From IMG/VR virus record IMGVR_UViG_3300017991_000003, positions 32,001-96,000 of that record: a DNA stretch of 64,000 bases. One strand, written 5' to 3'. Below are positions 31,842 to 63,755 of this stretch, piece after piece. The DNA is from a virus. A program made the translations under genes and the position numbers. The notes beneath the pieces were generated by a model. That model did no database searches. It was not told the DNA's origin and worked only from the letters and a program-made list of their open reading frames with translations. Position 1 is the stretch's first letter. Every line of letters begins with the position of its first letter.

Positions 31842-32302
31842 CTGTTGGTGTTCGGGGGGTTGATGTTGTCACACTGCTCACAGGTCCAGGTGGCGCCGGC
31901 AGGTACTTCCCCCTCAGCCTTGCGGATCTCTTCGATCTCCTTGCGGAAGGCCTCCTCGTCAGCGGCCCACCACTGGCCGGGCGCCTGCCCGTCGAGCTGG
32001 AGGTATCCCATGATCTGGACGCCCTCGCTCAGGTAGCGCTTGATCACCGCCCGCCGGGCCTTGGATTGCATCTCACCCGGGACCAGGATTCCGAAGGTCA
32101 GAAGCGCCCGGTAAGCCTCGTTGAGATGATCGTAGAGCGCTGCCCTGATATTGCTGTGCTCGGTTCGAGCGGCATCACCTAGCCGCTGATTGCGGCTGAC
32201 ATGGGCGAGGGCGTAGTCCAGCGCTACGATGCGAGACTCGCAGTCCTTGATGCGCTCGAGGCAGGTGCTGAAAGCCTGCTCGATGATTGGTGTGTCGGTC
32301 AT
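31811..32302 (-). CDS. Hypothetical zinc-ribbon protein
   Basis: Start set at internal Met giving ATGA overlap with the upstream gene stop; C-terminal CEQCDNINPPNTNRCVNCQ. Confidence 0.5.
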   Translation of the reverse strand: MTDTPIIEQAFSTCLERIKDCESRIVALDYALAHVSRNQRLGDAARTEHSNIRAALYDHLNEAYRALLTFGILVPGEMQSKARRAVIKRYLSEGVQIMGYLQLDGQAPGQWWAADEEAFRKEIEEIRKAEGEVPAGATWTCEQCDNINPPNTNRCVNCQEAFA

Positions 32303-41632: not shown

Positions 41633-44600
41633 ATGGCCGATAACGTCCAGCTCTACGACGCGCATCTAAACCTCTGGACCCTCAGGACATCCGAGGACAC
41701 AGAAATCCACACGCCGCACCACGTGTCGCGGCTGGCGGACGGGGAGGGGCGCTTCTACAGGCCCGGACGGCCGGTACCTGTGTCGATCTACGGGACGGAC
41801 GGGGTCGAGATCAACATCGAGGCCGGCTCGATCGCTGTCAGCACAGACCACAACGAGGACTCAGTAGCGGTCTTCGGGTCGTCGACCCCTGAGGGGCTGG
41901 AAAACTTCAGGTCGCTGGTGGTGGACCCCCAGGGGCACCTCCAGACCACAGTGGTCTCAGCGCCTGGGGTGGAGCCCGTCGGGGACTCGCCCGACGCGGG
42001 GCAGCTAGGTACGGTCATCCTAGGGGTCCAGGTAGGGGCAACGCCAGCTAGTCAGGTCACGGGGGACGGTCGGACAGCCCCTCTGATCATGGACGATCGG
42101 GGCCGGCTCTTCGTCTCTTTCGGCAACTCCGTCGCGGTTCTGCCCTTCACGCAAAAGGGTGACCTACTTACTTATGACGGATCTGACGAAGTTGTCCTGG
42201 GCCCGACGGTCGACGACGCGCTTCTGACACTGGACTCCAGTACCAGTACCGGCCTCAGGTGGGTGAGCCCGGTGACGAGCTCCCCCAGCCCCGTGCTCTT
42301 CCTACGCGAGGATCTAACATGGGCTCTGCCCTCAGCAGGGGCACCGGGCGGGGCTGCGGGCGGAGACTTGGGCGGGACCTATCCGAACCCGTCTGTGGTC
42401 GCTATCCAAGGGATTTCCACTTCTGCGGCTGCGCCAACGCCTGGGCAGACCTGGGTGTACACCGGCAGCGCTTGGAGTCCGGGAAGCCCGGCTACCGGAG
42501 CTGCTACGGACCACGGGACGCTCACAGGGCTCCTCGACGATGATCACACCCAGTACATCCTGGCTGATGGCTCTCGAGACTTCTCAGGCTCAATCGGCAT
42601 GGGTGGGAATGAGATCACGGATGTGGCCTCTCCTATCCTCGTATCCTGGGCAGCTAACAAGGGTTACGTTGATGATCAGATCACCGCGTCCGTCATCACG
42701 GACCACGGCGGGCTAGGCGGGCTCGGGGATGACGACCATACCCAGTACGTGTTGGTGGCTGGCACTCGTGCGTTCACGGGCGATCAGAGCCTAGGCGGTA
42801 ACAAGATCACGAGTCTGGGGTCCCCGACCACCGCAAGCGATGGAGCCAACAAAGGTTACGTCGACGCTAACGTGGTCACGGACCACGGCGCTTTGATCGG
42901 GCTGGGGGATGATGACCACACCCAGTACATCCTGACTGCGGGGACTCGAGCCTTCAGTGGTAACCAGAGCCTAGGCGGCAACCTGATCACAAGCCTAGGC
43001 TCGCCTACTACCGCAAGTGGTGGTGCTAACAAGGGTTACGTTGACGCGGCTATCACGTCGGCAGTGATCACGGATCACGGAGGGCTTGGCGGCCTGACGG
43101 ACGACGACCATACGCAGTACGTCCTGGTCGCAGGTACTCGAGCGTTCACAGGCAGCCAGAGCCTGGGCGGTAACCTGATCACGTCGCTAGGGTCTCCTAC
43201 TGTTGTAAGTGACGCAGCTAACAAAGGTTACGTTGATGCGCAGATCCCGACGAGCCTACCCCCTAGCGGGGCTGCTAGTGGTGATCTAGGCGGCACGTAC
43301 CCCGGGCCTACTGTGGTGGCCATTCAAGGCACCGGAGTCAGTGCAAACGCTCCAAGTACTGGTGATGGCCTGGTTTACACCGGAGCGGCTTGGAGTCCGA
43401 CCGCGGTCTATCGACCTGGCGGGACGGATGTGGCTGTGGCAGACGGGGGCACCGGGGCGTCGGACGCGTCCACGGCGCGTAGCAATCTAGGCCTGACCAT
43501 CGGGCTCGACGTCCAAGCCCACTCCGCAGTTCTTGACGCTACAACGGCCAGTTACACAACCGCGGCCGAGGGTAAGCTCTCGGGCATCGAGACCAACGCT
43601 GATGTCACGGACACAGCCAACGTGACGGCCGCTGGCGCTGTCATGATCGGCACAACGGCCGCGGCCGGGGACCTGAGCGGTACCTACCCGAGCCCGACGG
43701 TCGTGGCCATTCAGGGGACTGGCGTCTCGAGCACTGCGCCGAGCTCTGGGCAGGCCCTGATCTACTCCGGCACTGTCTGGAGCCCCAGCACGCTCCCCAG
43801 CGGGGTGACGGACCACGGGGCCCTGACCGGACTCGGAGACGACGACCATACCCAGTACATCCTGGTTGGTGGCACTCGCGCCTTCACGGGCAACCAGTCG
43901 ATGGGCGGCAACCTGCTCACGTCGTTGGGGAGCCCGGTGGCGGTAACAGACGCAGCTAACAAGGGTTACGTCAATGCCTCGATCACCGCGGCCGTCGTCA
44001 CGGACCACGGGGCCCTTGACGGGCTGGCCGATGACGACCACACCCAGTACCACAACGACGCTCGGGCGCTGACGTGGTTGGGGACGCGCGACACAGATGA
44101 CCTGGACCCGAGCGCCACCCGTCTCTACATGAGCCCGGGTGAGCGCACCAAGCTCGCCGGGATCGAAGCGCTTGCCGATGTGACCGATGCGGCCAACGTG
44201 GCCGCGGCCGGCGCTGTCATGGTCGGTGACGCTGCGGGCGGTGATCTTAGCGGTACCTACGCAAACCCGTCCGTGGTCGCGATCCAGGGTACGGGTTGCT
44301 CTTCAGCAACGCCGACCGCCGGCCAGACCTGGGTCTACTCCGGGTCCCAGTGGAGTCCTGGCTCACCCGCTGTTGGTGGCGCGTCAGATCACGGAACCCT
44401 GACCGGGCTGGGCGACGACGACCACACTCAGTACATTCTTGTTGACGGTACACGGGCCTTCACAGGCGCAGTTAGTCTCGGTGGGAGCCAGATCAACAGC
44501 CTGGCTTCGCCCACGCTCCCAGCAGATGCAGCCAACAAGGGCTACGTCGACGACCAGATCCCGACGAGTCTACCCCCTAGCGGGGCAGCGTCTGGCGACC

Positions 44601-45409
44601 TTGGTGGGACCTACCCGGGCCCAGACGTGGTGGCTATCCAGGGGACCGCGGTCAACTCGGCGACGCCGACGACGGGTGAGGCCCTGCTCTACTCGGGAAC
44701 GCAGTGGAGCCCTGGGCCGATCAACTTCCTCGAGCTCAACGACGTCGATCCCACAGGCCTGACCAACCTCGACCTGTTCTACTACAGCTCGGCGTCGGGG
44801 ACTATCGTCCGGTCTAGCGGCCTCACGACCTACGCGTTCTACACGCACAGCGGATCGCACATCCACGGACAGTACGACGCAATCGACGGGGATCAGCTAT
44901 CGATCACCCAGCCGGGCGTCAACTACTCCCCGACGACCGACGCGACATACGGCACCAACACGGCGCACCTCGCTGCCCATCTGCGGGGTATCGGTCTGGT
45001 CCTGGAGGATGTCAGTCCCGCGGTCACCAAGCTCGCCGGGATCGAGGCGGGCGCTGAAGCCAACGACGTTCAGACCAAGAGCATCACGATCGAGGCGCCG
45101 ACCACGACGGAAGACATCTCGTTCTTCTACGCTCCGGTAGCGATGACGATCTCAGAGATGGTCACGGTCCTGGTGGGCTCTCCTACGCCGTCCCTAGCGT
45201 GGACGCTCCGGCACAGCACCGACAGGAGCGCTGTGGGCAACGAGGTCATCACCGGGGGATCCACGGCGAATAGTACGACGACCGGTAACGTGCTGACCTC
45301 CTTCAACGACGCAACGGTCCCAGCCAACTCCTTCCTGTGGGTTGAAACGGCGAGCCCCAGCACGAACGTGACGAGCTTCCAGCTCAGCGTTGAGTACACC
45401 GACGACTGA
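41633..45409 (+). CDS. Tail fibre / receptor-binding protein with internal repeats
   Basis: 1258 aa; seven copies of a unit containing TDHGxLxGLxDDDHTQY...GANKGYVD and five copies of a second unit DLxGTYPxPxVVAIQGT; AGGGGAGGA ribosome-binding site before ATG. Confidence 0.7.
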   Translation: MADNVQLYDAHLNLWTLRTSEDTEIHTPHHVSRLADGEGRFYRPGRPVPVSIYGTDGVEINIEAGSIAVSTDHNEDSVAVFGSSTPEGLENFRSLVVDPQGHLQTTVVSAPGVEPVGDSPDAGQLGTVILGVQVGATPASQVTGDGRTAPLIMDDRGRLFVSFGNSVAVLPFTQKGDLLTYDGSDEVVLGPTVDDALLTLDSSTSTGLRWVSPVTSSPSPVLFLREDLTWALPSAGAPGGAAGGDLGGTYPNPSVVAIQGISTSAAAPTPGQTWVYTGSAWSPGSPATGAATDHGTLTGLLDDDHTQYILADGSRDFSGSIGMGGNEITDVASPILVSWAANKGYVDDQITASVITDHGGLGGLGDDDHTQYVLVAGTRAFTGDQSLGGNKITSLGSPTTASDGANKGYVDANVVTDHGALIGLGDDDHTQYILTAGTRAFSGNQSLGGNLITSLGSPTTASGGANKGYVDAAITSAVITDHGGLGGLTDDDHTQYVLVAGTRAFTGSQSLGGNLITSLGSPTVVSDAANKGYVDAQIPTSLPPSGAASGDLGGTYPGPTVVAIQGTGVSANAPSTGDGLVYTGAAWSPTAVYRPGGTDVAVADGGTGASDASTARSNLGLTIGLDVQAHSAVLDATTASYTTAAEGKLSGIETNADVTDTANVTAAGAVMIGTTAAAGDLSGTYPSPTVVAIQGTGVSSTAPSSGQALIYSGTVWSPSTLPSGVTDHGALTGLGDDDHTQYILVGGTRAFTGNQSMGGNLLTSLGSPVAVTDAANKGYVNASITAAVVTDHGALDGLADDDHTQYHNDARALTWLGTRDTDDLDPSATRLYMSPGERTKLAGIEALADVTDAANVAAAGAVMVGDAAGGDLSGTYANPSVVAIQGTGCSSATPTAGQTWVYSGSQWSPGSPAVGGASDHGTLTGLGDDDHTQYILVDGTRAFTGAVSLGGSQINSLASPTLPADAANKGYVDDQIPTSLPPSGAASGDLGGTYPGPDVVAIQGTAVNSATPTTGEALLYSGTQWSPGPINFLELNDVDPTGLTNLDLFYYSSASGTIVRSSGLTTYAFYTHSGSHIHGQYDAIDGDQLSITQPGVNYSPTTDATYGTNTAHLAAHLRGIGLVLEDVSPAVTKLAGIEAGAEANDVQTKSITIEAPTTTEDISFFYAPVAMTISEMVTVLVGSPTPSLAWTLRHSTDRSAVGNEVITGGSTANSTTTGNVLTSFNDATVPANSFLWVETASPSTNVTSFQLSVEYTDD
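42507..43250 (+). repeat. Four tandem in-frame copies of a ~186-bp (62-aa) repeat in the fibre gene
   Basis: DDDHTQY codon strings recur at about 42537, 42731, 42911 and 43101. Confidence 0.85.
43801..44560 (+). repeat. Three further copies of the same 62-aa repeat interleaved with AIQGT-motif units
   Basis: DDDHTQY codon strings at about 43845, 44033 and 44413. Confidence 0.8.
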
Positions 45410-50198: not shown

Positions 50199-51593
50199 CT
50201 AGTAGGCAGCCTGACCACCGCTGCTCGCCATGTCCTGGACAGGGCCGAGCTGCGCGAACCGCATGTCGTAGAGATCCCATTGAACACGATAGGGTTGGTC
50301 GACCGCACCGTCTCGGACCTTGCCGAGCTTCATGTCGATGACGCGGGCGTTGTTACCGGCATCCTTCGGCGGTACCAGGAAGACGAGGTTGTTGGAGTCG
50401 TGCGAGATGCTCTGGCTGAAAGCCACAGCATCAGCGTTCGACCGGGCCAGCGTGCCTTCATTTCGGCGCAGCTGCGTGGCCAGCATGTAGTGACGGTTGG
50501 ACATCAGCGTATGCAGACGCATCTGCCGCATGTTGCCCTCCACCTTCTGCCAGCGCTCCTTACCAGGGCCCTCCATGTAGTAGAAGCCGTCGATCAAGAC
50601 CAGGTCCGCGCCAAACTCCTCAGCCTGTGCGGCAACCTGATCAGGAGTCGTAGCCTGGTTAGGGCCCACGATGCGCAGGTTCTCACCAACGCGAGCGTGC
50701 GGCCCGTCTGCTTTCAGGCTACGCAATGCCTCGAAGTAGGCCGCCTTCTCCACGTCACTTAGCTTCTGCTTCATGAGGCGGTTGAAGCTAGTGCTCGAGA
50801 GCACCGCGGCTTGGCGTCGAGCCACATCGATGGGTGCCATCTCCAGACTGACGATCAAGACCCGAGCGCGGGCGGCGTCCTTCTGCTCCTGCGTCCACGC
50901 CGGGATGTCGGGTGGGCGGTGGAAGATGTAGGGATCTCCCAGGAGGCCGGCGGCACTGTTGAGCACGATGAACCAAGTCTTGCCGAGGCCGGTAGGAGCC
51001 ACACAGCTGGTGATCTGCGCAGGGTGCCAGCCCCCAAGCTGTTCCTGAATGAACAGGAACGGACAAGGGATGCCGAGCTTCACGCCGGCCAGCCGATCGT
51101 TGTAGTCCTGCTCGAGATCCTCAGCGTACTCTCGGAAGTCCTTGATCTCCGTCTTGTGTGCCGAGTACCTAGCTTGCAACGTATGAGCGTACAAGGACAT
51201 CGCGTCCTTGATGTCGAACGGGTCGGTGCGCTCGGTCAGCTGCTTGTGAAGATCCTGAAGGCTCTCTAGCACATCTACACGCACCGCCTCCTTAGCGACT
51301 TCGTCGTAGAGAACCGAGATGCTCGCTTCCGGGATCTCAGTACCAGCCAAGATCGTGGGAAGCTCAGGCCAGGCGCGCTGCGCCGTGTCAGGCGTAGGAA
51401 GCTCGTTGTACTGTGCTCGGTACCCGACGACCCACTCGATGATCTCCGTCATCGGCTCTTGAAAGAACCCGGGGTTGAGTCCGTTCTTGGCGACGTGGTG
51501 GTCGAAGGCGGCTAGGTTCCGGTCACTCAGGATCTTGGTCAGGAAGAGAGCCTCGACCCTGTCTCGAGAGTTGACGTTGGTGAACCCGGTCAC
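50199..51593 (-). CDS. DnaB-like replicative DNA helicase
   Basis: Walker A APTGLGKT, SLEM motif VLIVSLEM, LVLIDGFYYM and LATQLRRNEG segments. Confidence 0.75.
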   Translation of the reverse strand: MTGFTNVNSRDRVEALFLTKILSDRNLAAFDHHVAKNGLNPGFFQEPMTEIIEWVVGYRAQYNELPTPDTAQRAWPELPTILAGTEIPEASISVLYDEVAKEAVRVDVLESLQDLHKQLTERTDPFDIKDAMSLYAHTLQARYSAHKTEIKDFREYAEDLEQDYNDRLAGVKLGIPCPFLFIQEQLGGWHPAQITSCVAPTGLGKTWFIVLNSAAGLLGDPYIFHRPPDIPAWTQEQKDAARARVLIVSLEMAPIDVARRQAAVLSSTSFNRLMKQKLSDVEKAAYFEALRSLKADGPHARVGENLRIVGPNQATTPDQVAAQAEEFGADLVLIDGFYYMEGPGKERWQKVEGNMRQMRLHTLMSNRHYMLATQLRRNEGTLARSNADAVAFSQSISHDSNNLVFLVPPKDAGNNARVIDMKLGKVRDGAVDQPYRVQWDLYDMRFAQLGPVQDMASSGGQAAY

Positions 51594-53980: not shown

Positions 53981-55402
53981 TCAAGGGTTGGGGATGCCTC
54001 GGCGAGCGGCTGTGTACAGCGTGTCGAAGGCCTCGCCCCGGAGCTTGTAGGACGCCATGATGACGTCGCCTTTCCCGGTCGGAGGTGTCTTGTAGGACCT
54101 GAGAGCCTTGACGGCCAGCTCGAGGACCTCGGGCTCGTCGACCCACTCAGGGTAGATGTCCAGGACGCCGTTACGGATCATCGCGTCATGATCCTCGGTC
54201 GAGACAGGAGCGGCGTTGATGTACTCCATGTCGGACATCACGTGGTTGCGCAGCCAGGGGAAGATGTTGTTCCAGGCGGCGGTCCAGTAGGCAGGGATGA
54301 AACCGACGTCTTGGCACCTCTGAGGGCGCATGAAGTCCTTCCAGTCCCGGATCCAGACCTTCAGGAAGACGGCCTGCTGCTGGTTGGTCCTGATCCCCGA
54401 GCTGGCTAGGAGCTCGCGGAACTGGTTCATGATCTGGGTCGTACGGGCGATGGAGTGGGCTAGGCGACCGTTGGGGAGGGTCTCGTTGAACAGGCACTTG
54501 ATCCCTGAGGCCTTACAGGCTGCTCGGATCATGCGGACGAAGTCCATGGACTTCCAGCGATCGACGTGGGAGAGGTCGAGGGGATCGACTCGCTCAGCCG
54601 GCTTGGGGTGGGCTGGGTCCTCCTGAGGGGCCCTGTACTTGGACAGGGTCTGCTTGGACTTCTTCTTGACCCGGTCATCCTGACGGGCCTTCTCCTCGCT
54701 GTAGGCGGACCCACTGGTCACGTCTTGGATGCGCTTCTTCGGGGCCCTATCCCTTCGGGTCATATCCCCCTCCTGAGGGCTTGGCGGGTCCTCCCGCCTC
54801 GACGAGGAATGCGAAGCATTCCGAGGAGAGTCAGAGTCCTTGTAGGACTCTTCCTCGTAAGGGCGGAAGCCGGCTTCACCCTGCTGGCGGCCCCTAGAAG
54901 CGGGGTCACCCCCCGCCGCGGCCACGGTACCGGCCTTGGCCGCCTCCGGGCAGTGCTCCTGTACCCAGGGGTCGTCTCGGTACCTGGCCCACAGTGCTCG
55001 CCAGCACCTGTGGGTGATCGTTCGGGGCCGGAGCTTGACCACTAGGTCCAGCGTGATCGGGACCGGCACGAGCAGGCTCGAGGCCCGGACGCGGTGGGTC
55101 CGATGAAGCAGGCCCACCTCCACAAGCCGGTTCAGGATCGTACGGATCTGCCGGCTCGACAGGTCGCAGACGTCTCCGAGCACACGCGCGGACGCCGAGC
55201 AGATCCCGTTACTGGACGCCTCCGCGAAGGAGACCACCTCCTGATAGACAAAAACCTCGGTCTTGGTGAGGACCGAGGAGCGTCTGACAGCCTTGGACAT
55301 CCGGTCGTAGCCGGAGACCTCCGGGGAGGGGGGCAAAATAATCGCATTTCCCTTAGCAGAAGGGACTTGCGTTCTACCAGTCTCGTGTCCTAGACTACTC
55401 AT
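53981..55402 (-). CDS. Helix-turn-helix domain protein (candidate replication initiator or regulator)
   Basis: N-terminal winged-helix-like segment (SSRQIRTILNRLVEVGLLHR); 473 aa. Confidence 0.55.
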   Translation of the reverse strand: MSSLGHETGRTQVPSAKGNAIILPPSPEVSGYDRMSKAVRRSSVLTKTEVFVYQEVVSFAEASSNGICSASARVLGDVCDLSSRQIRTILNRLVEVGLLHRTHRVRASSLLVPVPITLDLVVKLRPRTITHRCWRALWARYRDDPWVQEHCPEAAKAGTVAAAGGDPASRGRQQGEAGFRPYEEESYKDSDSPRNASHSSSRREDPPSPQEGDMTRRDRAPKKRIQDVTSGSAYSEEKARQDDRVKKKSKQTLSKYRAPQEDPAHPKPAERVDPLDLSHVDRWKSMDFVRMIRAACKASGIKCLFNETLPNGRLAHSIARTTQIMNQFRELLASSGIRTNQQQAVFLKVWIRDWKDFMRPQRCQDVGFIPAYWTAAWNNIFPWLRNHVMSDMEYINAAPVSTEDHDAMIRNGVLDIYPEWVDEPEVLELAVKALRSYKTPPTGKGDVIMASYKLRGEAFDTLYTAARRGIPNP

Positions 55403-55461
55403 GTCGAATGACTACTCGGCGTTGTGACCCAGGGCGCATACACCTTCAGGGTCATGAATAT

Positions 55462-55499
55462 GCGGGTGCCCGCCTTGTGCGGGCCCCGCTTCTTTTTTT
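55462..55499 (+). terminator. Intrinsic-terminator-like hairpin plus T-run oriented on the plus strand
   Basis: GCGGG-T-GCCCGC-CTTGT-GCGGGC-CCCGC followed by TTCTTTTTTT at 55490-55499. Confidence 0.35.
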
Positions 55500-55563
55500 G
55501 GGTACCCCGCACCCTACGCGGTCCTGGGGACCGTTTCAAGGTGCGGGGCTCCACAAATCGCAT

Positions 55564-56193
55564 CTAGCCGTCCGTCGTTACCCAGGTGGTCGTCCAGTTA
55601 CCAGCTCCGGCGTCCGGCCCTGTGTAGGTCACCTGCATCACCTGGTCCGTCGTGAGGTCGACCCTCTGCACGTTTGGTTGCGGCTGGGGCCGGGGCTCCT
55701 CGTAGGTGAAGCGGCTCCAGAACTGATCCTCGTCGATAGCCTTCAGCTCGTTTGAGCGCCGGCGGATATCGACCGTACCTGGAGCTAGCTTGAATAGTGA
55801 GACGTGGAAAGTGCCTAGGAGCTCTGTCGCATTGGCCTCTTGGAGTTGCTCGTGACCGTCCAGGTGCCGGAACGGGTACCACCTGTCCGTGACGCCCTGC
55901 ATCCTGCCTCCGATGTCCGAGAAGTGCGGGTAGTCTCGCATGCACGCATTGAAGATACGCTTCCACCATCGGGAGGAGTAGAGCGGATTGGTGCGAGCTC
56001 CGATATCTCGGCCCCTGAGGTGCTCTTCAATGTGTTGGAGGACCCTGAAGACGACAGCGCGGTGATCGCGATCCGTCGGGCCTCGAGAGCGCAGGGTGCG
56101 GAGCGGGAACGTGGCTACGTGAATGCTCTGCTCCTGGAGGTGGCGGGTGTTCGTGATGTGGAGGACCTGGATAGGGCGGGGCCGGCGACTCAT
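55564..56193 (-). CDS. Hypothetical protein
   Basis: Start at internal Met giving ATGA overlap (56190-56193) with upstream gene. Confidence 0.5.
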   Translation of the reverse strand: MSRRPRPIQVLHITNTRHLQEQSIHVATFPLRTLRSRGPTDRDHRAVVFRVLQHIEEHLRGRDIGARTNPLYSSRWWKRIFNACMRDYPHFSDIGGRMQGVTDRWYPFRHLDGHEQLQEANATELLGTFHVSLFKLAPGTVDIRRRSNELKAIDEDQFWSRFTYEEPRPQPQPNVQRVDLTTDQVMQVTYTGPDAGAGNWTTTWVTTDG

Positions 56194-56900
56194 GGCTTGG
56201 TCAGGGTCAGGATGGTGATCATGTAAGGCGTGCGCAGGAGTAGGTACTTGTCCTGGACTGCCCATAGCACGGGGCTCTTGCCTAGGAGGATCAGGCACTG
56301 GCGGAGCTTGGTGACGTTGACGGCCGGGTAACGGCGCTCACCCGAGATGGGGTACTCAGTCGGCTCGGCTCGAAGACCCTGCTGTGGGCAGATCTCCATG
56401 AACTGGTAGTTCAGGGCTGACTGATGTGCTCGCGATTGCGGGATGACACCCAGCGGGTCTCCGGTCACGCGCTTGAAGGCTGCGGAACGAGCAGCCAGTT
56501 GCTGCATCAGATCTGCGTGCGGGTAGTCAGGGCCGGCCTTCACTGGCGCAGCCCTCGGGGTGTCGAGCTGCGTGCTGCTGTAGATCGTGGTGACGGTCAT
56601 GTTGCAGACCATTCGATCTAGCGGCCAGTCCTCGACCCAGGTCAGCTCTTTGGTGATCGAGGGGTGCAGTTGGTAGAGCAGGCGGCCTCGACCGCGTGCT
56701 AGGTAAGGGCGCTTCCACGCAGCCAACCGGTGCGAGCCTTCGACCCGTTGAGGTGTTTGGTACTCCGCAAAGGGGCCGGCCGGTTCTGTCGGTTCTGCGG
56801 CTTTTCGAGGCTGCTCCAGGTGGGTCAGCAGGGTAAGGACTCGCGCCTGATCACCCGCGCTCAGGGCCTCGATACGCTCAGCGATGGTCTTGTCGGTCAC
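56190..56900 (-). CDS. Hypothetical protein
   Basis: GTG start at 56898-56900 preceded by AAGGAG 7 nt upstream; track ORF extends further into non-coding sequence. Confidence 0.5.
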   Translation of the reverse strand: MTDKTIAERIEALSAGDQARVLTLLTHLEQPRKAAEPTEPAGPFAEYQTPQRVEGSHRLAAWKRPYLARGRGRLLYQLHPSITKELTWVEDWPLDRMVCNMTVTTIYSSTQLDTPRAAPVKAGPDYPHADLMQQLAARSAAFKRVTGDPLGVIPQSRAHQSALNYQFMEICPQQGLRAEPTEYPISGERRYPAVNVTKLRQCLILLGKSPVLWAVQDKYLLLRTPYMITILTLTKP

Positions 56901-57127
56901 TAAAAAGCTCCTTGGTGAATCAACCGGAGCAGAGCTCCGGAGGTGAAAGGTGCCCCACCCGCCGAGAGGCGAGTGGGGCGGTTGCCAGGATGCACACGAA
57001 CTACTGGAGTGGTGGACCTGAGCTGAGCCGGAGTATGGCACCGGATCGAGCCGGATTCAGTGACTGCGTATAGCTCGTTGGGTTTGTCTACCTCGTGGAT
57101 GAGCTCGGAGTCACGACTCGAGCGGAG

Positions 57128-57289
57128 TCGCCTGCCTCGAGCTCATTGTTGCCATCATCTCGTCTGGTTGATGAGATGGCGGCGGCTCCTCCTCTCCTGT
57201 TATCCTGCGCTTACAGTATTCTCGGTGCCCGAGCTCGACCCATCTCGTCAACCTGACGCGATGATGGCAACAATGAGCTCGAGGCAGGC
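57128..57289. repeat. 31-bp perfect inverted repeat pair separated by 100 nt
   Basis: 57128-57158 is the exact reverse complement of 57259-57289, verified base by base. Confidence 0.9.
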
Positions 57290-57438
57290 GCCGCAGCGAG
57301 AGGCGCCGTGGCTCAGCCTCGTGGTGGGCAAACCCACGAGTTATTCGCAGACACTGAAGCCGGCCCGGTTGACATGCTCTGGCTCAGCTCAGGGTCTACC
57401 CGTAGGTGCAAGTGTGGCCGAGGTTGCTGTTGCGCTAT

Positions 57439-57457
57439 CTGCGGCGATGCGCCGCAG
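57439..57457 (+). repeat. Hairpin motif copy 1 (CTGCGGCG-ATG-CGCCGCAG)
   Basis: 8-bp stem, 3-nt loop; shares core GGCGATGCGCCGC with two other copies. Confidence 0.8.
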
Positions 57458-57785
57458 GACCCTCAAGTCAAGAGGGAATAGCTCTTCGTGTGCGGGGATT
57501 CCAAGGCAAGAGCCTGGATGGGCGCGCAGAGCATGATCCCGGTCGTGGAGGCGTGCCCGAGCTTTGTACGCGACCCGGTTCGGGTCGAGGATAAAGCGAA
57601 GGACCAGCACGCTGTAACGATCCGTGGATTATGCTCCGCGCTGTCCCAGCCAGCGCTTCGTTGGTAGTGGGAGGCGCCTCCGCTAGGAGGCGACGTCCTC
57701 GAGTTGCGCTACTGAAGCGACCACACATGCTGGCATGTGTAGCTTCAGGTGCGCAGTGCTCGAGGCCCACGACCAGTCGTACAGT

Positions 57786-57802
57786 GGCGGCGATGCGCCG
57801 CC
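57786..57802 (+). repeat. Hairpin motif copy 2 (GGCGGCG-ATG-CGCCGCC)
   Basis: 7-bp stem, 3-nt loop; same core. Confidence 0.8.
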
Positions 57803-58040
57803 TGAAGACGTTGTGGATTAGGCCTCCGGTAGGCCCGTTCCAGTCTTTCTACTCCCTTGGAAAGGTAGTCACCTCTTGCGAGGCTGGCTGGCTACCTTGG
57901 TATCGGCGCTCGTAGAGACTACCCGGTCACACGCCCGCCGGAGGCGGGCTTGTGGACGCGTGGTCTCAACGTAATGTGTCACAGGAGACAGCTCGAGGCG
58001 CAGCTCGAGCGGGCCTCCGGCCACAGTTTCTATCACTTGA

Positions 58041-58053
58041 CGGCGATGCGCCG
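58041..58053 (+). repeat. Hairpin motif copy 3 (CGGCG-ATG-CGCCG)
   Basis: 5-bp stem, 3-nt loop; same core. Confidence 0.75.
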
Positions 58054-58265
58054 CCGCGGAAGTCAGATGGGCTAGCTAGACCACTTCTTTCCTTGCTCCG
58101 CCGAAGATGTACCTGTTGGCAGCCCTGGTACTGGGCTTTTGGCTATGAAGAACGGATCATCGGGGCCAACTACCCTCCTGCTCTTCGTGCCTGTTGGTAC
58201 CGGCCTTTGGCCGGCAGCCGAGCCTGCTCCGGATTATGTGGAGCAGACTCGGTTCACTTGGTGCG

Positions 58266-58733
58266 CTAGCCGCGCTCCTTGACGGGGACCTTCATGATGA
58301 GGACGTCGCCCTCCTTGAGGGTCATCCCGTCGGTCACCTCCTGGCCGCCGATGTGCGGCTTCGACCCCTCGGGGGTGCCGAAGCGGCGAGCGTACTCGGT
58401 CCGCGCGTCGGCGACCGAGGTGCCGGCGGCGACGTTGAGGCGGCCGGGCTCGCCCAGACCGTCGGTGGCCGCGGCGGTGACCGTGGCGACCGGACCCGCC
58501 TGCGGGGTCTCCTGGGTCGTCGGCGCCGTCGTGGCGGTGGGAGCGGTGCGCGTCACGGCGACGGCCACCTCGGTGTCCGTGGGCAGACCCGTGGTCTGGT
58601 CCCACTTGGTCGGATCCGAGTGGTCGACCTCGTAGAGCACGGGGTTGCCGGCCGCGTCGTTCGCGGGGGAGTCGGCGTAGCGGATGCGACGGTTGAGGGT
58701 GTCGAACGCGGGGCGCTTGATGTTTCCGGTCAT
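58266..58733 (-). CDS. Beta-grasp (ThiS/MoaD/ubiquitin-like) domain protein with N-terminal extension
   Basis: C-terminal ~60 aa (GRLNVAAGTSVADARTEYARRFG...TLKEGDVLIMKVPVKERG) matches the ThiS/MoaD pattern by eye; ends in a single Gly; no clear ribosome-binding site. Confidence 0.5.
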   Translation of the reverse strand: MTGNIKRPAFDTLNRRIRYADSPANDAAGNPVLYEVDHSDPTKWDQTTGLPTDTEVAVAVTRTAPTATTAPTTQETPQAGPVATVTAAATDGLGEPGRLNVAAGTSVADARTEYARRFGTPEGSKPHIGGQEVTDGMTLKEGDVLIMKVPVKERG

Positions 58734-58756
58734 GGTGCAGAGGGTGTGTAGAGGGT

Positions 58757-59491
58757 TCAGGTGAGTTGGAGGGAGTGCTGCGTCTGCGGCGCGGCTTTCC
58801 CACCGAGCACGTCGACCACGATGGTGTTGAAGCTGGGCTTCATCGGGTCGTCGATCGTCAGGACCTGGGCGAACCAGGTCTGCAACATGGCCTGGGCGAC
58901 CGCTTGGTTCGCCAGAGCCAGTTGCGGCTGCGTCTCGTACTCCTGGGTGCAGTCCAGCTGATCGGGAAACTCGTTCCCAGGAGTCTCATGACGCATCTCG
59001 GGGTTCCGTTCGGTGAGCGACGCGCAGACGTCCTCGCTGTTGATGCGGCGCCAGAGCATGGCCTGGCCGCTGTCGAGGTCGTTGCCGCCGTCCACCCACG
59101 TGAACTCGTCGAGCTTGTCGAGCTGCTCCTCGAGGAAGCAGCGGGTCTTGTTGTTGTCCACGCAGCCGAACAGCGTGACGCCCTCGACCAACCACTCACG
59201 GTGGTGGTTCAGGAGCCGATCGCTCAGGTACATGGAGATCACCCGGACGTCCAGGCCCGGGAAGGTGTCTCGCAGGGTTCGGGCCATGATCTCGGCTTTG
59301 TTCTGGCCGATGGCCGCGGCGCCGTGCTGGCGCGCGAGGTTGTGGTCCTCGACCTCGTCGCCGTCGATGATGAAGAGGGTCGGATTCTGGATCCGATCCC
59401 CCACCATCTCAGGCGGGTGGGCGAGAAGACGAGCGAGCGGCTCGGCTAGGTGGTAGCCGATGCCGCCCGCTCCGAGGATGGCGTAGATCAT
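58757..59491 (-). CDS. E1-like adenylyltransferase (ThiF/MoeB family)
   Basis: Start at MIYAILGAGGIG (Rossmann GxGxxG); IIDGDEVEDHNLARQ matches the E1 Arg-finger; GCVDNNKTR matches the conserved DN..R segment. Confidence 0.7.
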   Translation of the reverse strand: MIYAILGAGGIGYHLAEPLARLLAHPPEMVGDRIQNPTLFIIDGDEVEDHNLARQHGAAAIGQNKAEIMARTLRDTFPGLDVRVISMYLSDRLLNHHREWLVEGVTLFGCVDNNKTRCFLEEQLDKLDEFTWVDGGNDLDSGQAMLWRRINSEDVCASLTERNPEMRHETPGNEFPDQLDCTQEYETQPQLALANQAVAQAMLQTWFAQVLTIDDPMKPSFNTIVVDVLGGKAAPQTQHSLQLT

Positions 59492-59495
59492 GAGG

Positions 59496-61394
59496 TCAGG
59501 GGTAGATGGGGAGGGTGGCTTCTGTTTCGGACTTGTTGCAGAAGGCGATCTCCTCGAGGAGGACATCGTCTTCCATGTCGTCGGGGTCCTCGAGGACTCC
59601 GTCCATCTCGAGCACCAGTCGATCCATCTGATCGAGGATCTCTTGGTAGTCCTTGCGGTAGGGAATGCCGGCGTTCTGGGCCGCCTTGCGGACGACAAAG
59701 TAGGTCAGCCGGAACCACTCGAGCAGGACGCCGTCGGAGTCCTCTCGCGAGAATGCCTCGACGTAGCTCAGGTTGGTCTCGATCACGGTCTCGATCACGG
59801 TGTCGATCGACGTCTCGGGGAACACAGTTTTCACCGTCGGGTCGGCGTAGACGTATTTCGAGAGCTTGTCGATCCGGGCATCCAGTGCGATCGACTTGAA
59901 TAGCCGGTCGAGAAGGTCGTCGATGCGATTCATCACCTCGTCGATGACGTCTCGAACCAGCATGCTGTAGAGGGTCTGACGACTCTCGGATGCGCTGTTC
60001 TGCGCTTCTTCGACGATCTCTTCGATCGTGGGGGCGTTATCGAACCACTCACTGGTCGAGGCGTGGTTCATGAGCAGATGCAGGGCTAGGGCCGTAGCGT
60101 TGCTCGACGTCAGACTGTCCTTGAACGAGGTGCAGTACGCCCACACGGCTCGTGGGAAGGTCGTTTGCTGACCCTCCGCCTTCTTGATCAGCTGAAGGGG
60201 GTAGTGCGCTTGCGGTGAGATCACCATGCCGTAGAAGCCGGTGTGCATCCGCTGGATGCGGAACTTCTTATCAGCGACCAGCGAAGGGCCAGAGGCTGTC
60301 TTGCTGACAGGTACCAGTGAGGTAGTCGTCTTCTTCGTCGTCTGGCCAAGGCCACCCTGCGCCCCCGTACCCCCAGTCTTGCCGCCAGGAGTCGAAGGCG
60401 TACCCGCTTTGCCGCCGGTCCACTTTTTCGAGCCATAGCCGCCATACCTGCTGGTCTTGGCTTTCTTCTCCGCCTCCTTGATGGCCTCGCTGGCCAACTT
60501 GAACGTGGTAAGACAACGGGCGGCCTCGCCCATCCTGTCCTTCCAACGCCCCAGGCTTTCCATCGACCCACAGAAGGTCATCACAGTGCTCGTGTCGACG
60601 TCCTCGAGCTTGTCGACGCTGAGACCGACGGCGAGCTCGTCGGGATCGACCCCGGCCTTCAGCATGGCTTCGCACAGTCCGGGGTGGGCGACCCGGTTCA
60701 GCCACAGCTGAATCAGATCCAGGCCGCCCTCCACGAAAGGGATGTCGAACAACTCCTCGAGACCGGTCGCGTGGCGGATGCCCTGCGCCTTCTCGTTGCG
60801 GTAGCCGGGGAGGGCGGTGACGAACGACGGGCACACCGAGAAGGGCGGCTTGTCCACGTTCCCGAAGGTGATGTGGAAGCCCGTCTGGTTGAGCTCGTTG
60901 GCGTCGTCGGTCGAGCTGTGGTAGGCTCCACCAGCGCCGTGACTGTGCGCGGTGCCGACGCAGATGAACTCGACAAGCTCTCCATCCTCGCAGATGGGGC
61001 AAGCGTTGCCGGCTTCGAGCTCGATCGAGCCGATGCGACAGGTCGTGCAGAAGCTCTTGACGTTGGGATCGTACTTCACGTGCCCCGCGGAGGCGGTGTA
61101 CCACGGCGGACTGACGAGGGTGTAGGCGTCGTCGACCGGCCCTCGGTGGAAGAGCACGAAGGCCTCGGTCTTCCACAGGCGGTAGACCTCGGCGAAGTAG
61201 CGGTAGACGAACATCGTCTCCGCCATGGAGATCTTGGGCCAGTTGGTGAGGTCCAGGTCACGCTGGATCTGGTCGGTTTCACCGAGGTCCTCGGCCCGGG
61301 CGGGAACGAAGGCCTGAGCCCAGGCGGCCCCGCCTGGGCCGATGGTCTTCAGCACGTGGGCTTGGTTGCCCTTGTAGTAGATGTCGGTGGTCAT
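59496..61394 (-). CDS. JAB/JAMM metallopeptidase-domain protein with zinc ribbon and large C-terminal domain
   Basis: Exact JAMM signature HSHGAGGAYHSSTDD preceded by CTTC...CPIC; GC3-rich codons checked across the gene; start at internal Met giving ATGA overlap with upstream gene. Confidence 0.7.
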   Translation of the reverse strand: MTTDIYYKGNQAHVLKTIGPGGAAWAQAFVPARAEDLGETDQIQRDLDLTNWPKISMAETMFVYRYFAEVYRLWKTEAFVLFHRGPVDDAYTLVSPPWYTASAGHVKYDPNVKSFCTTCRIGSIELEAGNACPICEDGELVEFICVGTAHSHGAGGAYHSSTDDANELNQTGFHITFGNVDKPPFSVCPSFVTALPGYRNEKAQGIRHATGLEELFDIPFVEGGLDLIQLWLNRVAHPGLCEAMLKAGVDPDELAVGLSVDKLEDVDTSTVMTFCGSMESLGRWKDRMGEAARCLTTFKLASEAIKEAEKKAKTSRYGGYGSKKWTGGKAGTPSTPGGKTGGTGAQGGLGQTTKKTTTSLVPVSKTASGPSLVADKKFRIQRMHTGFYGMVISPQAHYPLQLIKKAEGQQTTFPRAVWAYCTSFKDSLTSSNATALALHLLMNHASTSEWFDNAPTIEEIVEEAQNSASESRQTLYSMLVRDVIDEVMNRIDDLLDRLFKSIALDARIDKLSKYVYADPTVKTVFPETSIDTVIETVIETNLSYVEAFSREDSDGVLLEWFRLTYFVVRKAAQNAGIPYRKDYQEILDQMDRLVLEMDGVLEDPDDMEDDVLLEEIAFCNKSETEATLPIYP

Positions 61395-61816
61395 GTGGTG
61401 ATCAGGGGTGGGTGGAATCGACGTAGGACGGTCAAGACCGCCTGGGTGTCTTCGTTGATGTCTTGCTCGGCTAGTAGGTGATCGAGCCGGCGCATCCAAT
61501 CACGTAGGGTCGTGAGCTGCTCGGGGCCCATGCTCGCCGGAGGGTCGACGACAGGACGTCGGTCGCTCTCGTCTCGGATCAAGTTGAAGCGGATGTTGTT
61601 GATCCTTCCACCGTCTAGCGCAACTGGATAGGTGCGTTGGAAGATCTGACCAAGAGCCTCGATCATCTCTCGAGTAAGACCCGTCCCCTCAAGATCGAGA
61701 AGGTGCGGTCGGTTCTCGAGGATCCGAGATAGAAGCTCCTCGCGTCTCCGGATAATGGCCTGGTGATCATTGTGTCGATCACGCGCGCCTTGCACGGTGT
61801 CCAGAATGGTGGTCAT
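61391..61816 (-). CDS. Hypothetical protein (operon member)
   Basis: 141 aa; ATGA overlaps at both ends (61813-61816 and 61391-61394). Confidence 0.55.
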   Translation of the reverse strand: MTTILDTVQGARDRHNDHQAIIRRREELLSRILENRPHLLDLEGTGLTREMIEALGQIFQRTYPVALDGGRINNIRFNLIRDESDRRPVVDPPASMGPEQLTTLRDWMRRLDHLLAEQDINEDTQAVLTVLRRFHPPLITT

Positions 61817-62655
61817 CGGACCACCTCTCGCCACTTCTCGGCCGCCGTACCGAGCTCCCGGCCCAGTACGATCTCATCGACGTCCGTCTGCCAGGTCATG
61901 ATGCGATCCTCGGTCCAGCGCTGCCATCGACAGAACTGCCAGAGCATGACAGTGTTCATGTTCAGGCCCAGATCACGCCGCCTGTCGTAGTCGGTGTAGT
62001 CACCTTCGGGGAGTTGCTCGAAGTACGGGACCTCTCGAAGCGCTTCGGGAACCTCAAACCCCTCAGGGAGCGGCCCGCTGAAAGGTGGCATGGTCAGGGA
62101 GTGCTCGTAGTGCGCGTTGTAGCCGGACTCGTTGATGAGCTTGAGGACCATCTCCGGGATCGACTGGAGCCCGTTGTACCGGTACTGGCGGAACACAGCA
62201 CCCGTGCACATGCCTCCCGTATCTTGCTGGTTCGGTAGGAATGATTTGTACAGAACCGGGGTGTACCCCGCCTCCAGATGCGGCTGCTGCTTGGTGAAGA
62301 AGCAGCGGGCATCGGAGAGGCGCCCGTCGTAGATCGAGATGATGAAGACGCGCGCAGGCATGGCGACCAGGAATCGAAGACCCTCCGGCCAGCCGCGGTT
62401 CTCGCGGACGTCGATGGAGATCCTCTCAGCCCGCGGAGGCACGACTGCCATGAAGTGCTCGTTGTGGGCATCCTTGGTGTGTGCCAGGATGTTTACGTAG
62501 GGGTGGTACGGAAAGAGGGCGCCAGCGCGCCGGCCTCGTTCCTCGAGGGCGGTCACGACGTCTTCTTCCCGCGTGATGCGGTTGACGTGAACCGTTTGAT
62601 GGATCACGTGACCATCGACGATGACGAGTCGATCGTGGGTTTCGAAGTTGGTCAT
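61813..62655 (-). CDS. Hypothetical protein (operon member, candidate effector)
   Basis: 280 aa; ATGA overlap with the RT stop at 62652-62655. Confidence 0.6.
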   Translation of the reverse strand: MTNFETHDRLVIVDGHVIHQTVHVNRITREEDVVTALEERGRRAGALFPYHPYVNILAHTKDAHNEHFMAVVPPRAERISIDVRENRGWPEGLRFLVAMPARVFIISIYDGRLSDARCFFTKQQPHLEAGYTPVLYKSFLPNQQDTGGMCTGAVFRQYRYNGLQSIPEMVLKLINESGYNAHYEHSLTMPPFSGPLPEGFEVPEALREVPYFEQLPEGDYTDYDRRRDLGLNMNTVMLWQFCRWQRWTEDRIMTWQTDVDEIVLGRELGTAAEKWREVVR

Positions 62656-63755
62656 GGGAGGTACGCGCGTGTCTCGGCGCTGTAGTTGGTGGGGGTGTTG
62701 TGGTGCACGTCTTGCGCGACACGCAGTTGTAGTTGGAGCGAGGCTCCTTGATCAGGGTTGATGAAGTTGACGTGGTTGACGAGGCCGGCGAGGTGGTCAA
62801 AGTTCACCGGCACAGGGCCTCGGTGCGTCAGCTCTCCCCCACGGGGACAGCGGCCGAAGTGCGCGTCGCAGATGATCTTGTGCAGCCGGGCGCGAAGCGC
62901 GCGCCGTCGAGGCCTGGGAGCGCTTAGCTTCTCGTTGACGACGACGCCGCAGACCGTCATGCGACTGCCGATGGAGCGGAATCGGATCTTTTCGGGGGCG
63001 ACCTTGTAGCCCAGCTTTTTCAGGAACCCGATGACGGGGTACTGGAACTGGTACAGCTTTCTGTAATCCGCCGTGAAGGTCATGTCGTCGCTATAGCGGG
63101 TGTACGCGATCGGCAGGAGTCTGATCTGAGTCTGCGTCTTTCGCCGGCGCTCTCCGTGGTTGTCGACCCACCGCATCGTGGGGTTGGTCCGCCAGGACTC
63201 GATCAGCTTCAGGATGCCGAAGTCCACCTGAGCCCCTGCCAGGTTGGAGAGGAAGGGGGACGTGGGGGCTCCTTGTGGTAGGCCACCATCCAAGAAGCAG
63301 GCGCGTTTGACTCTGTCAAGGAAGAGCCTGTCGGCACGTGACATCGGTTGCATGTACCCCCTGGTCAGGAAGTACTCCAGCTGCTCGAGGACGACGTGGG
63401 GAGACACGGACGGGAAGAAGTCCCGCAGATCGATGTCCAGCTTGTACCGGTGACCTACATGCGGGGCGGCGTTGGTGTGGATACCACGCTTGCGGACGTA
63501 GGCATGAGCTGCTGGGGAGGCCCCGATCCCGAGCGCTTTGAGCTCGCTGAGGATGAGCTTTTGAGCAGCCATTAGCTCCGGGCAAGGGATCTGGAGCTTT
63601 CGCATCTTCTGACGTGTCCGACCGTTCGAAAGCGTCTCGAGTACCGGGACTTCTCGACCATCCCGGGTACGCCTGGTCTTGGGGATTCGTGCGAATCGGT
63701 AGTGCTCAGCTTGAGCGGTGTCCGTCAGGACATTGAATGATGGGTAGCCAGCCAT
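62652..63755 (-). CDS. Reverse transcriptase, retron-type
   Basis: TNAAPH (NAxxH), YKLDIDLRDFFPSV, GLPQGAPTSPFLSNL (QGxxxSP), YTRYSDDMTF (YxDD), RMTVCGVVVN (VTG-like); GAGGG ribosome-binding site 6 nt before ATG. Confidence 0.8.
   Translation of the reverse strand: MAGYPSFNVLTDTAQAEHYRFARIPKTRRTRDGREVPVLETLSNGRTRQKMRKLQIPCPELMAAQKLILSELKALGIGASPAAHAYVRKRGIHTNAAPHVGHRYKLDIDLRDFFPSVSPHVVLEQLEYFLTRGYMQPMSRADRLFLDRVKRACFLDGGLPQGAPTSPFLSNLAGAQVDFGILKLIESWRTNPTMRWVDNHGERRRKTQTQIRLLPIAYTRYSDDMTFTADYRKLYQFQYPVIGFLKKLGYKVAPEKIRFRSIGSRMTVCGVVVNEKLSAPRPRRRALRARLHKIICDAHFGRCPRGGELTHRGPVPVNFDHLAGLVNHVNFINPDQGASLQLQLRVAQDVHHNTPTNYSAETRAYLP

Follow-up and report, generated by a model that had tools for sequence, protein, structure and literature searches.

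The window analyzed here, a stretch of 64,000 nt, stems from an uncultivated viral metagenome contig (IMG/VR record IMGVR_UViG_3300017991_000003, positions 32,001 to 96,000); the analysis placed it on the IMG/VR contig UViG_3300018080_003942. ENA contigs as long as 175 kb contain its sequence as well, and contigs of up to 193 kb are listed in the record of its reverse transcriptase (RT) protein. The RT gene opens an operon on the minus strand, which ends with the gene of a putative ubiquitin-like protein (Ubl) and is followed by a gene-free gap of 1365 nt, the subject of this study. The locus is composed as follows:

62652-63755, minus strand: RT of 367 aa, assigned by sequence to the retron clade, with the motifs NAAPH and VCG; first conserved gene of the operon
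58266-62655, minus strand: rest of the operon, with 280-aa, 141-aa, JAB-like, ThiF/E1-like, and 155-aa proteins
56901-58265, minus strand: gene-free, hairpin-dense gap, recognized by hairpin count, GC content at third and second codon positions (GC3 and GC2), Pfam searches, and public gene calls

In minus-strand order, the operon encodes the RT, the 280-aa and 141-aa proteins, both without a family match, a JAB-like protein of ~632 aa with an HSH...D core, a ThiF/E1-like protein of 244 aa, and the 155-aa small protein, the Ubl, whose stop borders the gap. At its other end, the gap is delimited by the GTG start of a 236-aa gene, beyond which genes of an O-like replication initiator (53981-55402) and a DnaB helicase (50199-51593) are found. 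The original prediction, made from the sequence alone, had set the start of the 236-aa gene (56190-56900) at this GTG; the codon at 56900 is preceded by AAGGAG, and the position agrees with the public call of a 236-aa gene. The gap itself had been described as lacking any coding-like open reading frame (ORF), which is borne out by four observations: every ORF within it shows a GC3 of 0.50-0.63 and a GC2 of 0.53-0.71, compared with 0.74-0.94 and 0.38-0.55 for real genes of this DNA; a Pfam search of the gap ORFs returned nothing below E = 0.06; tblastx between the gaps of related phages did not find coding conservation; and the public contig gene calls place no gene in it. By a crude GC3 screen, it is also the largest non-coding stretch of the window, as had been stated, provided that the 1258-aa ORF at 41633-45409 counts as a gene; this ORF failed the GC3-based coding screen, unlike the genes adjacent to it.

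Searches for known elements remained negative. No match to the gap was obtained by blastn against phage and plasmid records, no tRNA or transfer-messenger RNA gene was detected in the window, and a consensus scan for sigma-70 promoters and intrinsic terminators gave no site on either strand. The covariance scan against Rfam, a check that had been proposed earlier, covered the window and seven related loci at gathering score and the gap at E values up to 10; it returned only tRNAs in the relatives and matched no family, GOLLD and ROOL included.

All hairpins that had been listed for the gap were recovered (57571-57587, the area of 57670-57692, a nested hairpin at 57712-57748, 57821-57835, 57933-57949, 57991-58010, and 58200-58214). 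Eight perfect stems (7 bp or more, loops of 3-7 nt) occur in the gap, corresponding to 5.9 per kb in comparison to 0.89 per kb in the whole window. This is a ~6.6-fold enrichment, while other segments of 1365 nt hold at most five, confirming that the hairpin density is real and well beyond chance. The biggest feature, not singled out before, is an imperfect hairpin of 377 nt at 57017-57393, with folding z scores against dinucleotide shuffles of -16.2 (RNA, minus strand) and -18.8 (DNA, plus strand). By the same measure, the region 57490-57910 reaches z = -9.6. In addition, the 13-mer GGCGATGCGCCGC is present in three copies in the 64 kb, all of them within the gap and in a single orientation, with 0.32 copies expected and three copies reached in none of 100 shuffles; these palindromic repeats are spaced 253 and 346 nt apart. 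A further bin of the window (55401-55700) is more stable than its shuffles on both strands (z = -3.3 and -4.5) and spans the 161-nt intergenic region 55403-55563 between the O-like initiator gene and a 209-aa gene.

Read on the minus (operon) strand (position p of the gap being 58266 - p in the window), the gap can be divided into three tandem modules, U1, U2, and U3. Each follows the order of a 5' repeat (a1), a G, short hairpins including one with a 7-bp stem, a GGCG core and a 3-nt loop (the triloop hairpin), one or more long hairpins, and a 3' repeat (a2) pairing with a1:

58218-58252 and 58200-58214, minus strand: two hairpins just 3' of the Ubl stop, more stable in operon sense
57903-58104, minus strand: module U1 (a1, GAGC, triloop hairpin, further hairpins, a2)
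58099-58104, minus strand: U1 a1 TCGGCG, pairing with a2 CGCCGA at 57903-57908
58095-58098, minus strand: U1 GAGC
58039-58055, minus strand: U1 GGCG triloop hairpin
57976-58023 and 57911-57971, minus strand: further U1 hairpins
57499-57896, minus strand: module U2, the unit common to four lineages
57864-57896, minus strand: U2 conserved hairpin GGTAGCCAGCC...CTACC
57855-57862, minus strand: U2 a1 TTCCAAGG, pairing with a2 CCTTGGAA at 57499-57506
57851-57854, minus strand: U2 GAGT
57807-57846, minus strand: U2 hairpin A
57786-57802, minus strand: U2 GGCG triloop hairpin
57666-57771, minus strand: U2 hairpin CCTGAAG...CTTCAGG, enclosing the nested hairpin listed earlier
57511-57656, minus strand: U2 hairpin of 146 nt
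56992-57493, minus strand: module U3, closing pair p = 0.0016
57485-57493, minus strand: U3 a1 GCACACGAA, pairing with a2 TTCGTGTGC at 56992-57000
57481-57484, minus strand: U3 GAGC with the candidate priming G
57460-57476, minus strand: U3 hairpin A
57439-57457, minus strand: U3 GGCG triloop hairpin, followed by a 45-nt spacer and the giant hairpin
57017-57393, no strand assigned: giant imperfect hairpin of 377 nt, candidate msd template, with better fold and wobble pairs in plus-strand polarity
56952-56979, minus strand: GC-rich hairpin, followed by the motif CACCTTTCACC (56941-56952) and a second hairpin (56924-56940)

The two hairpins at 58200-58252 may act as an attenuator or processing site. 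The region 56924-56979 is a candidate for the end of the sense transcript but fails the consensus terminator scan. tRNA-derived cloverleaves were considered for the modules, given that the 7-bp/3-nt hairpin is as long as an anticodon arm and that tRNAs occur in the gap of relatives; they were rejected, as the spacings do not fit and a T-arm is missing.

Extension of the analysis toward related phages revealed ~10 lineages with RTs of 32-51% identity that have the same operon and, after it, 0.6-2.3 kb devoid of genes. RT homologs of 34-51% identity are encoded on large contigs in the shared gene order of RT, two small proteins, JAB-like, ThiF-like, and Ubl, with the gap coming next in nearly all lineages. 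The individual gaps measure 1.1-1.2 kb in L006-L008, 0.6 kb in L009/L055, 1.6 kb in L010, 0.98 kb in L014, 1.16 kb in L016/L059, 1.09 kb in L052/L062, 2.3 kb in L053, 0.92 kb in L066, and at least 0.9 kb up to the contig end in L013. They can be aligned solely at motifs of ~17-29 nt. The operon was not found in any cultured phage by tblastn with the JAB-like protein and the RT. IMG/VR scans by single protein returned nothing beyond the window's own contig, the IMG/VR scan by ThiF alignment led to unrelated ThiF loci only, which then served as negative controls, and the IMG/VR scan with DNA motifs gave one spurious match inside a coding region.

Despite this sequence divergence, the order of elements within the modules (a1, G, hairpin A, triloop hairpin, long hairpin, a2) recurs: U3 is found in the window, L006, and L010, U2 in these three and in L009, and U1 in the window and L010, with the order also present in the AT-rich L014. 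The closing repeats a1 and a2 form perfect pairs of 6-11 bp at matching positions with differing sequences in 10 units of five lineages. For U3, these are GCACACGAA/TTCGTGTGC in the window, GCAGCAGTTGA/TCAACTGCTGC in L010, and ACTTCTAA/TTAGAAGT in L006; for U2, TTCCAAGG/CCTTGGAA in the window, CTCAAGG/CCTTGAG in L006, TCTCAAGG/CCTTGAGA in L009, and CTCAGTG/CACTGAG in L010; for U1, TCGGCG/CGCCGA in the window and, at the matching position of L010, ATCTAGCG|GAGC ... CGCTAGAT. The pair of L014 is AAGGATC/GATCCTT. Shuffling of the closing pairs gave p = 0.0004-0.28 for the nine units tested, combined by hand with Fisher's method to ~2e-8. Repeat a1 is positioned just upstream of the small hairpins, whereas a2 starts 3-16 nt past the long hairpin. 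A G directly 3' of a1 is present in 8 out of 10 units, mostly as GAGC or GAGT, and a G at +3 in nine. The best-conserved sequence of the region, AGGTAGCCAGCC, lies in a hairpin at the start of U2. After the last module, the GC-rich hairpin and CACCTTTCACC are common to the window, L006, L009, and L010; in L009, they directly follow U2, so that this lineage has a single module without a giant hairpin.

The triloop hairpin, a 7-bp stem with GGCG/CGCC core and 3-nt loop, was detected by motif scan in 14 copies in the gaps of seven lineages, with two looser matches elsewhere in those loci. Its three outer pairs are compensatory both within and between genomes (GAC/GTC, CGT/ACG, GAA/TTC, GTA/TAC, and CGC/GCG). 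When a covariance model was built from these copies and run on 764 kb of loci, among them ~30 unrelated ThiF loci as controls, it gave nothing new below E = 0.7. About 30-45 nt past the last triloop hairpin, a long imperfect hairpin follows, measuring 377 nt in the window, 413 nt in L006, 435 nt in L010, and 494 nt in L014; further long hairpins were found in L053 (298 and 196 nt) and L066 (203 nt). The sequences of these long hairpins are unrelated across the loci, and in each locus scanned whole they are the only palindromes passing the cut-offs (at least 100 nt, E < 1e-10). Hence, the homologous genomes carry a conserved structure rather than a conserved protein gene: compensatory closing helices, the triloop hairpin, and long hairpins kept without sequence. 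Two further comparisons contributed little, as RNAalifold was informative for the triloop only, the variable hairpins being misaligned in the underlying MAFFT alignment (U2 5' domain), and the microdiversity between L010 and L011/L012 comprised six differences, none of them informative.

Several features of the related gaps were observed alongside. A public 201-aa gene call (L010:9422-10027, minus strand) lies largely inside the 435-nt hairpin and is probably spurious. The L053 gap holds about five tandem copies of the 16-nt unit GCACTGCGTGCTTGCC (around L053:6975-7065), upstream of its first long hairpin. The gap of distant relatives also encodes tRNAs in operon sense, namely tRNA-Ala(UGC) in four lineages as well as Gly, Pro, and Asn tRNAs (L013:15796-15949, L014:15087-15160, L053:7618-7690, and L057:8489-8722), while the clade of the window is devoid of them.

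Based on its sequence, the RT is a member of the retron clade. Among 50 RT matches in PADLOC, the 25 best were all retron RT models (best 2.4e-44). The best NCBIfam match was the retron St85 RT with 132 bits, below the equivalog cut-off of 235, and 11 out of 13 matches to solved structures were named retron proteins, including the ten best, with Ec86 on top (2.7e-20). NAAPH at residues 93-97 fits the NAXXH motif of region X, as defined together with the VTG motif in PMC7736814. The H is invariant in an alignment of 14 RTs, 12 of them operon-linked and two bacterial-type homologs; at the VTG position, the L016 and L052 lineages show the canonical motif, and its G is invariant. In comparison to bacterial retron-like homologs, the phage RT family has an insertion of ~40 aa between motifs 4 (LPQGAPTSP) and 5 (YTRYxDD). 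The region upstream of the operon, the usual site of a retron RNA, is unstructured (z = +1.9).

Regarding the remaining operon proteins, the terminal small protein (58266-58733, minus strand) ends in an invariant K-x-R-G in ten lineages (the window, L006, L009, L010, L013, L014, L016, L052, L053, and L066), with one to two residues past the Gly in three lineages and a length of only 74-84 aa in three lineages. This fits a ubiquitin-like protein with E1-like activation and JAB-like trimming. Sequence searches of the 280-aa and 236-aa proteins against solved structures returned nothing.

Wobble-pair polarity was compared between the two types of hairpins. The triloop hairpins contain eight G.U pairs and no A.C opposition in operon sense, and the other short hairpins are likewise more stable in this sense. 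The opposite was found for 11 long hairpins of six lineages, whose minimum free energy structures contain 19 G.U pairs in sense and 91 in antisense orientation (binomial p = 9e-13; 2e-7 against a 60:40 null, used because the plus strand is mildly G+T-rich) and which are up to 55 kcal/mol more stable in antisense. The plus strand is G+T-rich genome-wide; as the short hairpins run against this bias, they serve as an internal control. Thus, selection appears to keep the short elements folded as sense RNA and the long hairpins folded as the complementary copy. For 57017-57393, the favored plus-strand polarity is that of a complementary DNA (cDNA) made from minus-strand RNA. cDNA synthesis by the adjacent RT would explain both polarities with one transcript. 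For a branched, RNA-linked DNA product, the wobble pairs in cDNA polarity (91 against 19) give indirect support only.

Taken together, we propose that the gap is a tandem array of three retron-like non-coding RNA (ncRNA) modules with a giant msd-like hairpin, serving the retron-type RT of the operon, a reading to which we give an even chance. The link of the gap to the RT had not been drawn in the original prediction, and we think that it is the key to the region. As to transcription and its direction, RT binding, priming at the G, the cDNA product, and its role, we infer the following course. The gap would be transcribed on the minus strand, either by read-through of the operon or by internal initiation close to the conserved GGTAGCCAGCC hairpin, with transcription ending at the hairpin 56952-56979. 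Each module would fold via pairing of its a1/a2 ends, and the RT would recognize the short stem-loops, chiefly the conserved 7-bp GGCG triloop hairpin. It would then prime at the conserved G just 3' of a1 and copy the a2-proximal long hairpin into single-stranded DNA, giving hairpin DNAs of ~146 nt from U2 and at least 377 nt from U3. These might act as a DNA decoy versus host defence or be linked to the replication genes just downstream. On a broader level, and with somewhat less than even probability, this phage family would possess its own retron-derived system, in which the RT, the E1-like and JAB-like proteins, and the Gly-terminated Ubl are combined with an array giving rise to hairpin DNAs of up to ~400-500 nt, used during infection as decoy or as primer or scaffold for the replication module.

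A number of observations weigh against this interpretation. The structured region is separated from the RT upstream of it by 4.4 kb and five genes, and in view of genome-wide synteny, the adjacency of RT and gap is weak evidence of a functional link. The window RT carries V-C-G at the VTG position. Module U2 contains two sizeable hairpins, not one msd hairpin, and U1 has the weakest closing helix of the three (6 bp, p = 0.28). Several lineages (L009, L016, and L052) lack the giant hairpin. The module-by-module comparison is limited to four close lineages that are alignable only at short motifs, and the 100% pairing of the triloop copies is partly circular, as these were chosen as hairpins; their weight lies in their location, not in the pairing. 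A small part of the polarity bias could be explained by the G+T richness of the plus strand, and the case for a transcript and a cDNA, like that for a 2'-5' branch, is built on sequence throughout.

Two natural variants help the link between RT and gap a little. The first, L067:4728-6662, on a contig binned with a Candidatus Vogelbacteria genome, encodes JAB-like, ThiF-like, and small-ORF proteins and has neither the RT nor the gap. The second, L065, has a divergent RT of 34% identity, a 174-aa ORF at the JAB-like position, and no gap after the Ubl gene; at the canonical retron position, a 118-nt structure with a 13-bp closing stem (L065:9893-10010, z = -3.2) abuts the RT start codon. As an equivalent of the gap, the L065 region between RT module and ThiF was considered and rejected, being unstructured (z = +2.4) and containing small ORFs.

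The most serious rival, which we regard as less likely, is that one or several large stable structured phage RNAs are expressed from the operon strand and have no relation to reverse transcription, comparable to GOLLD and ROOL or to RNAs of phage tRNA regions. The operon-sense tRNA genes in the equivalent gap of distant relatives are in line with it, and the neighborhood of the RT could be accounted for by genome-wide synteny. The same applies to a ~235-nt RNA common to the gaps of L052 (15120-15400), L062 (8228-8500), and L060 (3848-4100), which is closed by ACAACCAAA/TTTGGTTGT, is well supported by double changes in 16 pairs, carries its G.U pairs in operon sense, and is unlike a classical msr-msd; its shape, which differs from that of the window modules, also counts against the retron-like reading. 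On the other hand, neither the window nor the seven related loci match GOLLD, ROOL, or any other Rfam family apart from tRNAs, and a stable RNA leaves two observations unexplained: the wobble polarity of the long hairpins, opposite to that of the short hairpins and the tRNAs, and the order of a1, G, short hairpins, long hairpin, and a2 beside a retron-clade RT.

Better folding and G.U pairs in plus-strand polarity could alternatively mean that the long hairpins are plus-strand RNAs antisense to the operon, e.g., double-stranded RNA decoys or RNase III substrates, with the short hairpins belonging to the 3' untranslated region of the operon. We attribute a low probability to this explanation. 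The flanking genes are all located on the other strand, as are the tRNAs between the long hairpins of L053, the scan for promoter-like and terminator-like sites was negative for both strands, and the a1/a2 helices enclose short and long hairpins alike, suggesting one folded molecule.

Among the possibilities raised originally (structured RNA, replication origin, or regulatory hub), the structured RNA is favored by our data, while an origin has become very improbable. As a DNA element, the gap would serve the O-like initiator and DnaB as an origin or a site of priming that contains iterons and extruded hairpins. Their genes are indeed only 1.5-6 kb away, a palindromic 13-17-mer is present in three copies, and strand-specific hairpins could act on single-stranded DNA. 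The GC content of 0.60-0.64 throughout the gap leaves no AT-rich stretch, the cumulative skew rises monotonically without a turn, and the repeats, at distances of 253 and 346 nt, are not closely phased. Moreover, covariation of the outer pairs of the repeat hairpin, seen both inside one genome and across genomes, fits a structure and not the site of one protein, and neither closing helices nor sense-strand G.U pairs are expected of an origin. The strand-specific wobble pairs point to a single-stranded nucleic acid rather than to double-stranded binding sites. Finally, the large inverted repeat and the junk-like ORFs might suggest mobile DNA that inserted here or a sequence in decay, e.g., a miniature inverted-repeat element, the template of a diversity-generating retroelement (DGR), or pseudogene debris. 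This is extremely improbable, since the gap has no full or partial copy or other similarity in the remaining 64-kb window and no phage or plasmid match, contains no template/variable repeat pair, is associated with an RT matching retron models and not of the DGR class, and persists together with its architecture across lineages with RTs of 32-51% identity.

A description of the gap RNA region was not found in our literature search. If the retron-like reading is true, viruses would have adopted the machinery of retrons, and reverse transcription would be linked to ubiquitin-like conjugation, a pairing that we did not find described. Retrons are bacterial anti-phage systems and genome-editing tools whose usefulness is limited by the length of DNA made; natural templates of ~400-500 nt would point to RTs making long single-stranded DNA. 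Even without a DNA product, the gaps would represent a conserved family of large structured phage RNAs outside Rfam.

Compared with known systems, the gap resembles GOLLD and ROOL in being a large (0.5-1 kb), structured, non-coding part of phage genomes that come from lakes and other environments. GOLLD and ROOL are located beside tRNA genes in phages, and relatives of this phage have tRNA genes in the gap. In contrast to them, the gap lacks a covariance-model match, is modular with simple long hairpins and conservation of short motifs, and is linked to an RT. With DRT2 and DRT9, it would share an RT copying a dedicated structured ncRNA. The window RT reaches only 21 bits on the Drt2 model (cut-off 390), and the template here would be a hairpin without coding signal, so that a concatemer gene of the "neo" type is unlikely. 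Regarding PRTRC and Bil-type E1/JAB/Ubl systems, the ThiF-like and JAB-like proteins weakly match the models of PRTRC ThiF, PRTRC protein A, and PADLOC E1-E2, and the Ubl ends in Gly; the scores are far below the curated cut-offs, and an E2 was not recognized. We know of no RT or ncRNA described with PRTRC or Bil-type systems.

The closest comparison is with retrons themselves, and several differences have to be considered. Retrons reside in bacterial defence islands, whereas this system belongs to a large, uncultivated virus for which no relative was detected among deposited phage genomes. The modules are three in tandem, motif 7 of the RT reads VCG, and the long hairpins attain 377-494 nt across the family, while classical multicopy single-stranded DNAs measure roughly 50-160 nt. 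Its partners in the operon are E1-like, JAB-like, and Ubl genes, which to our knowledge are not among the retron effector types. The term "ThiF" is absent from the main text of PMC7736814, and retron RNAs are contiguous with their RT (PMC7736814), unlike the RNA proposed here with its distance of 4.4 kb and five genes. What is shared is the architecture: retron msr-msd transcripts have paired ends, a G beside the 5' repeat, one to three short hairpins, and a long hairpin beside the 3' repeat (PMC8632793, section 7; PMC7736814, section 16). Likewise, the system described here combines a retron-clade RT with NAXXH, a1/a2 pairing, a G right after a1 in most units as a candidate for the priming G, and a structure kept while its sequence diverges, and module U3 of the window consists of two short hairpins followed by one hairpin of 377 nt that ends 16 nt before a2.

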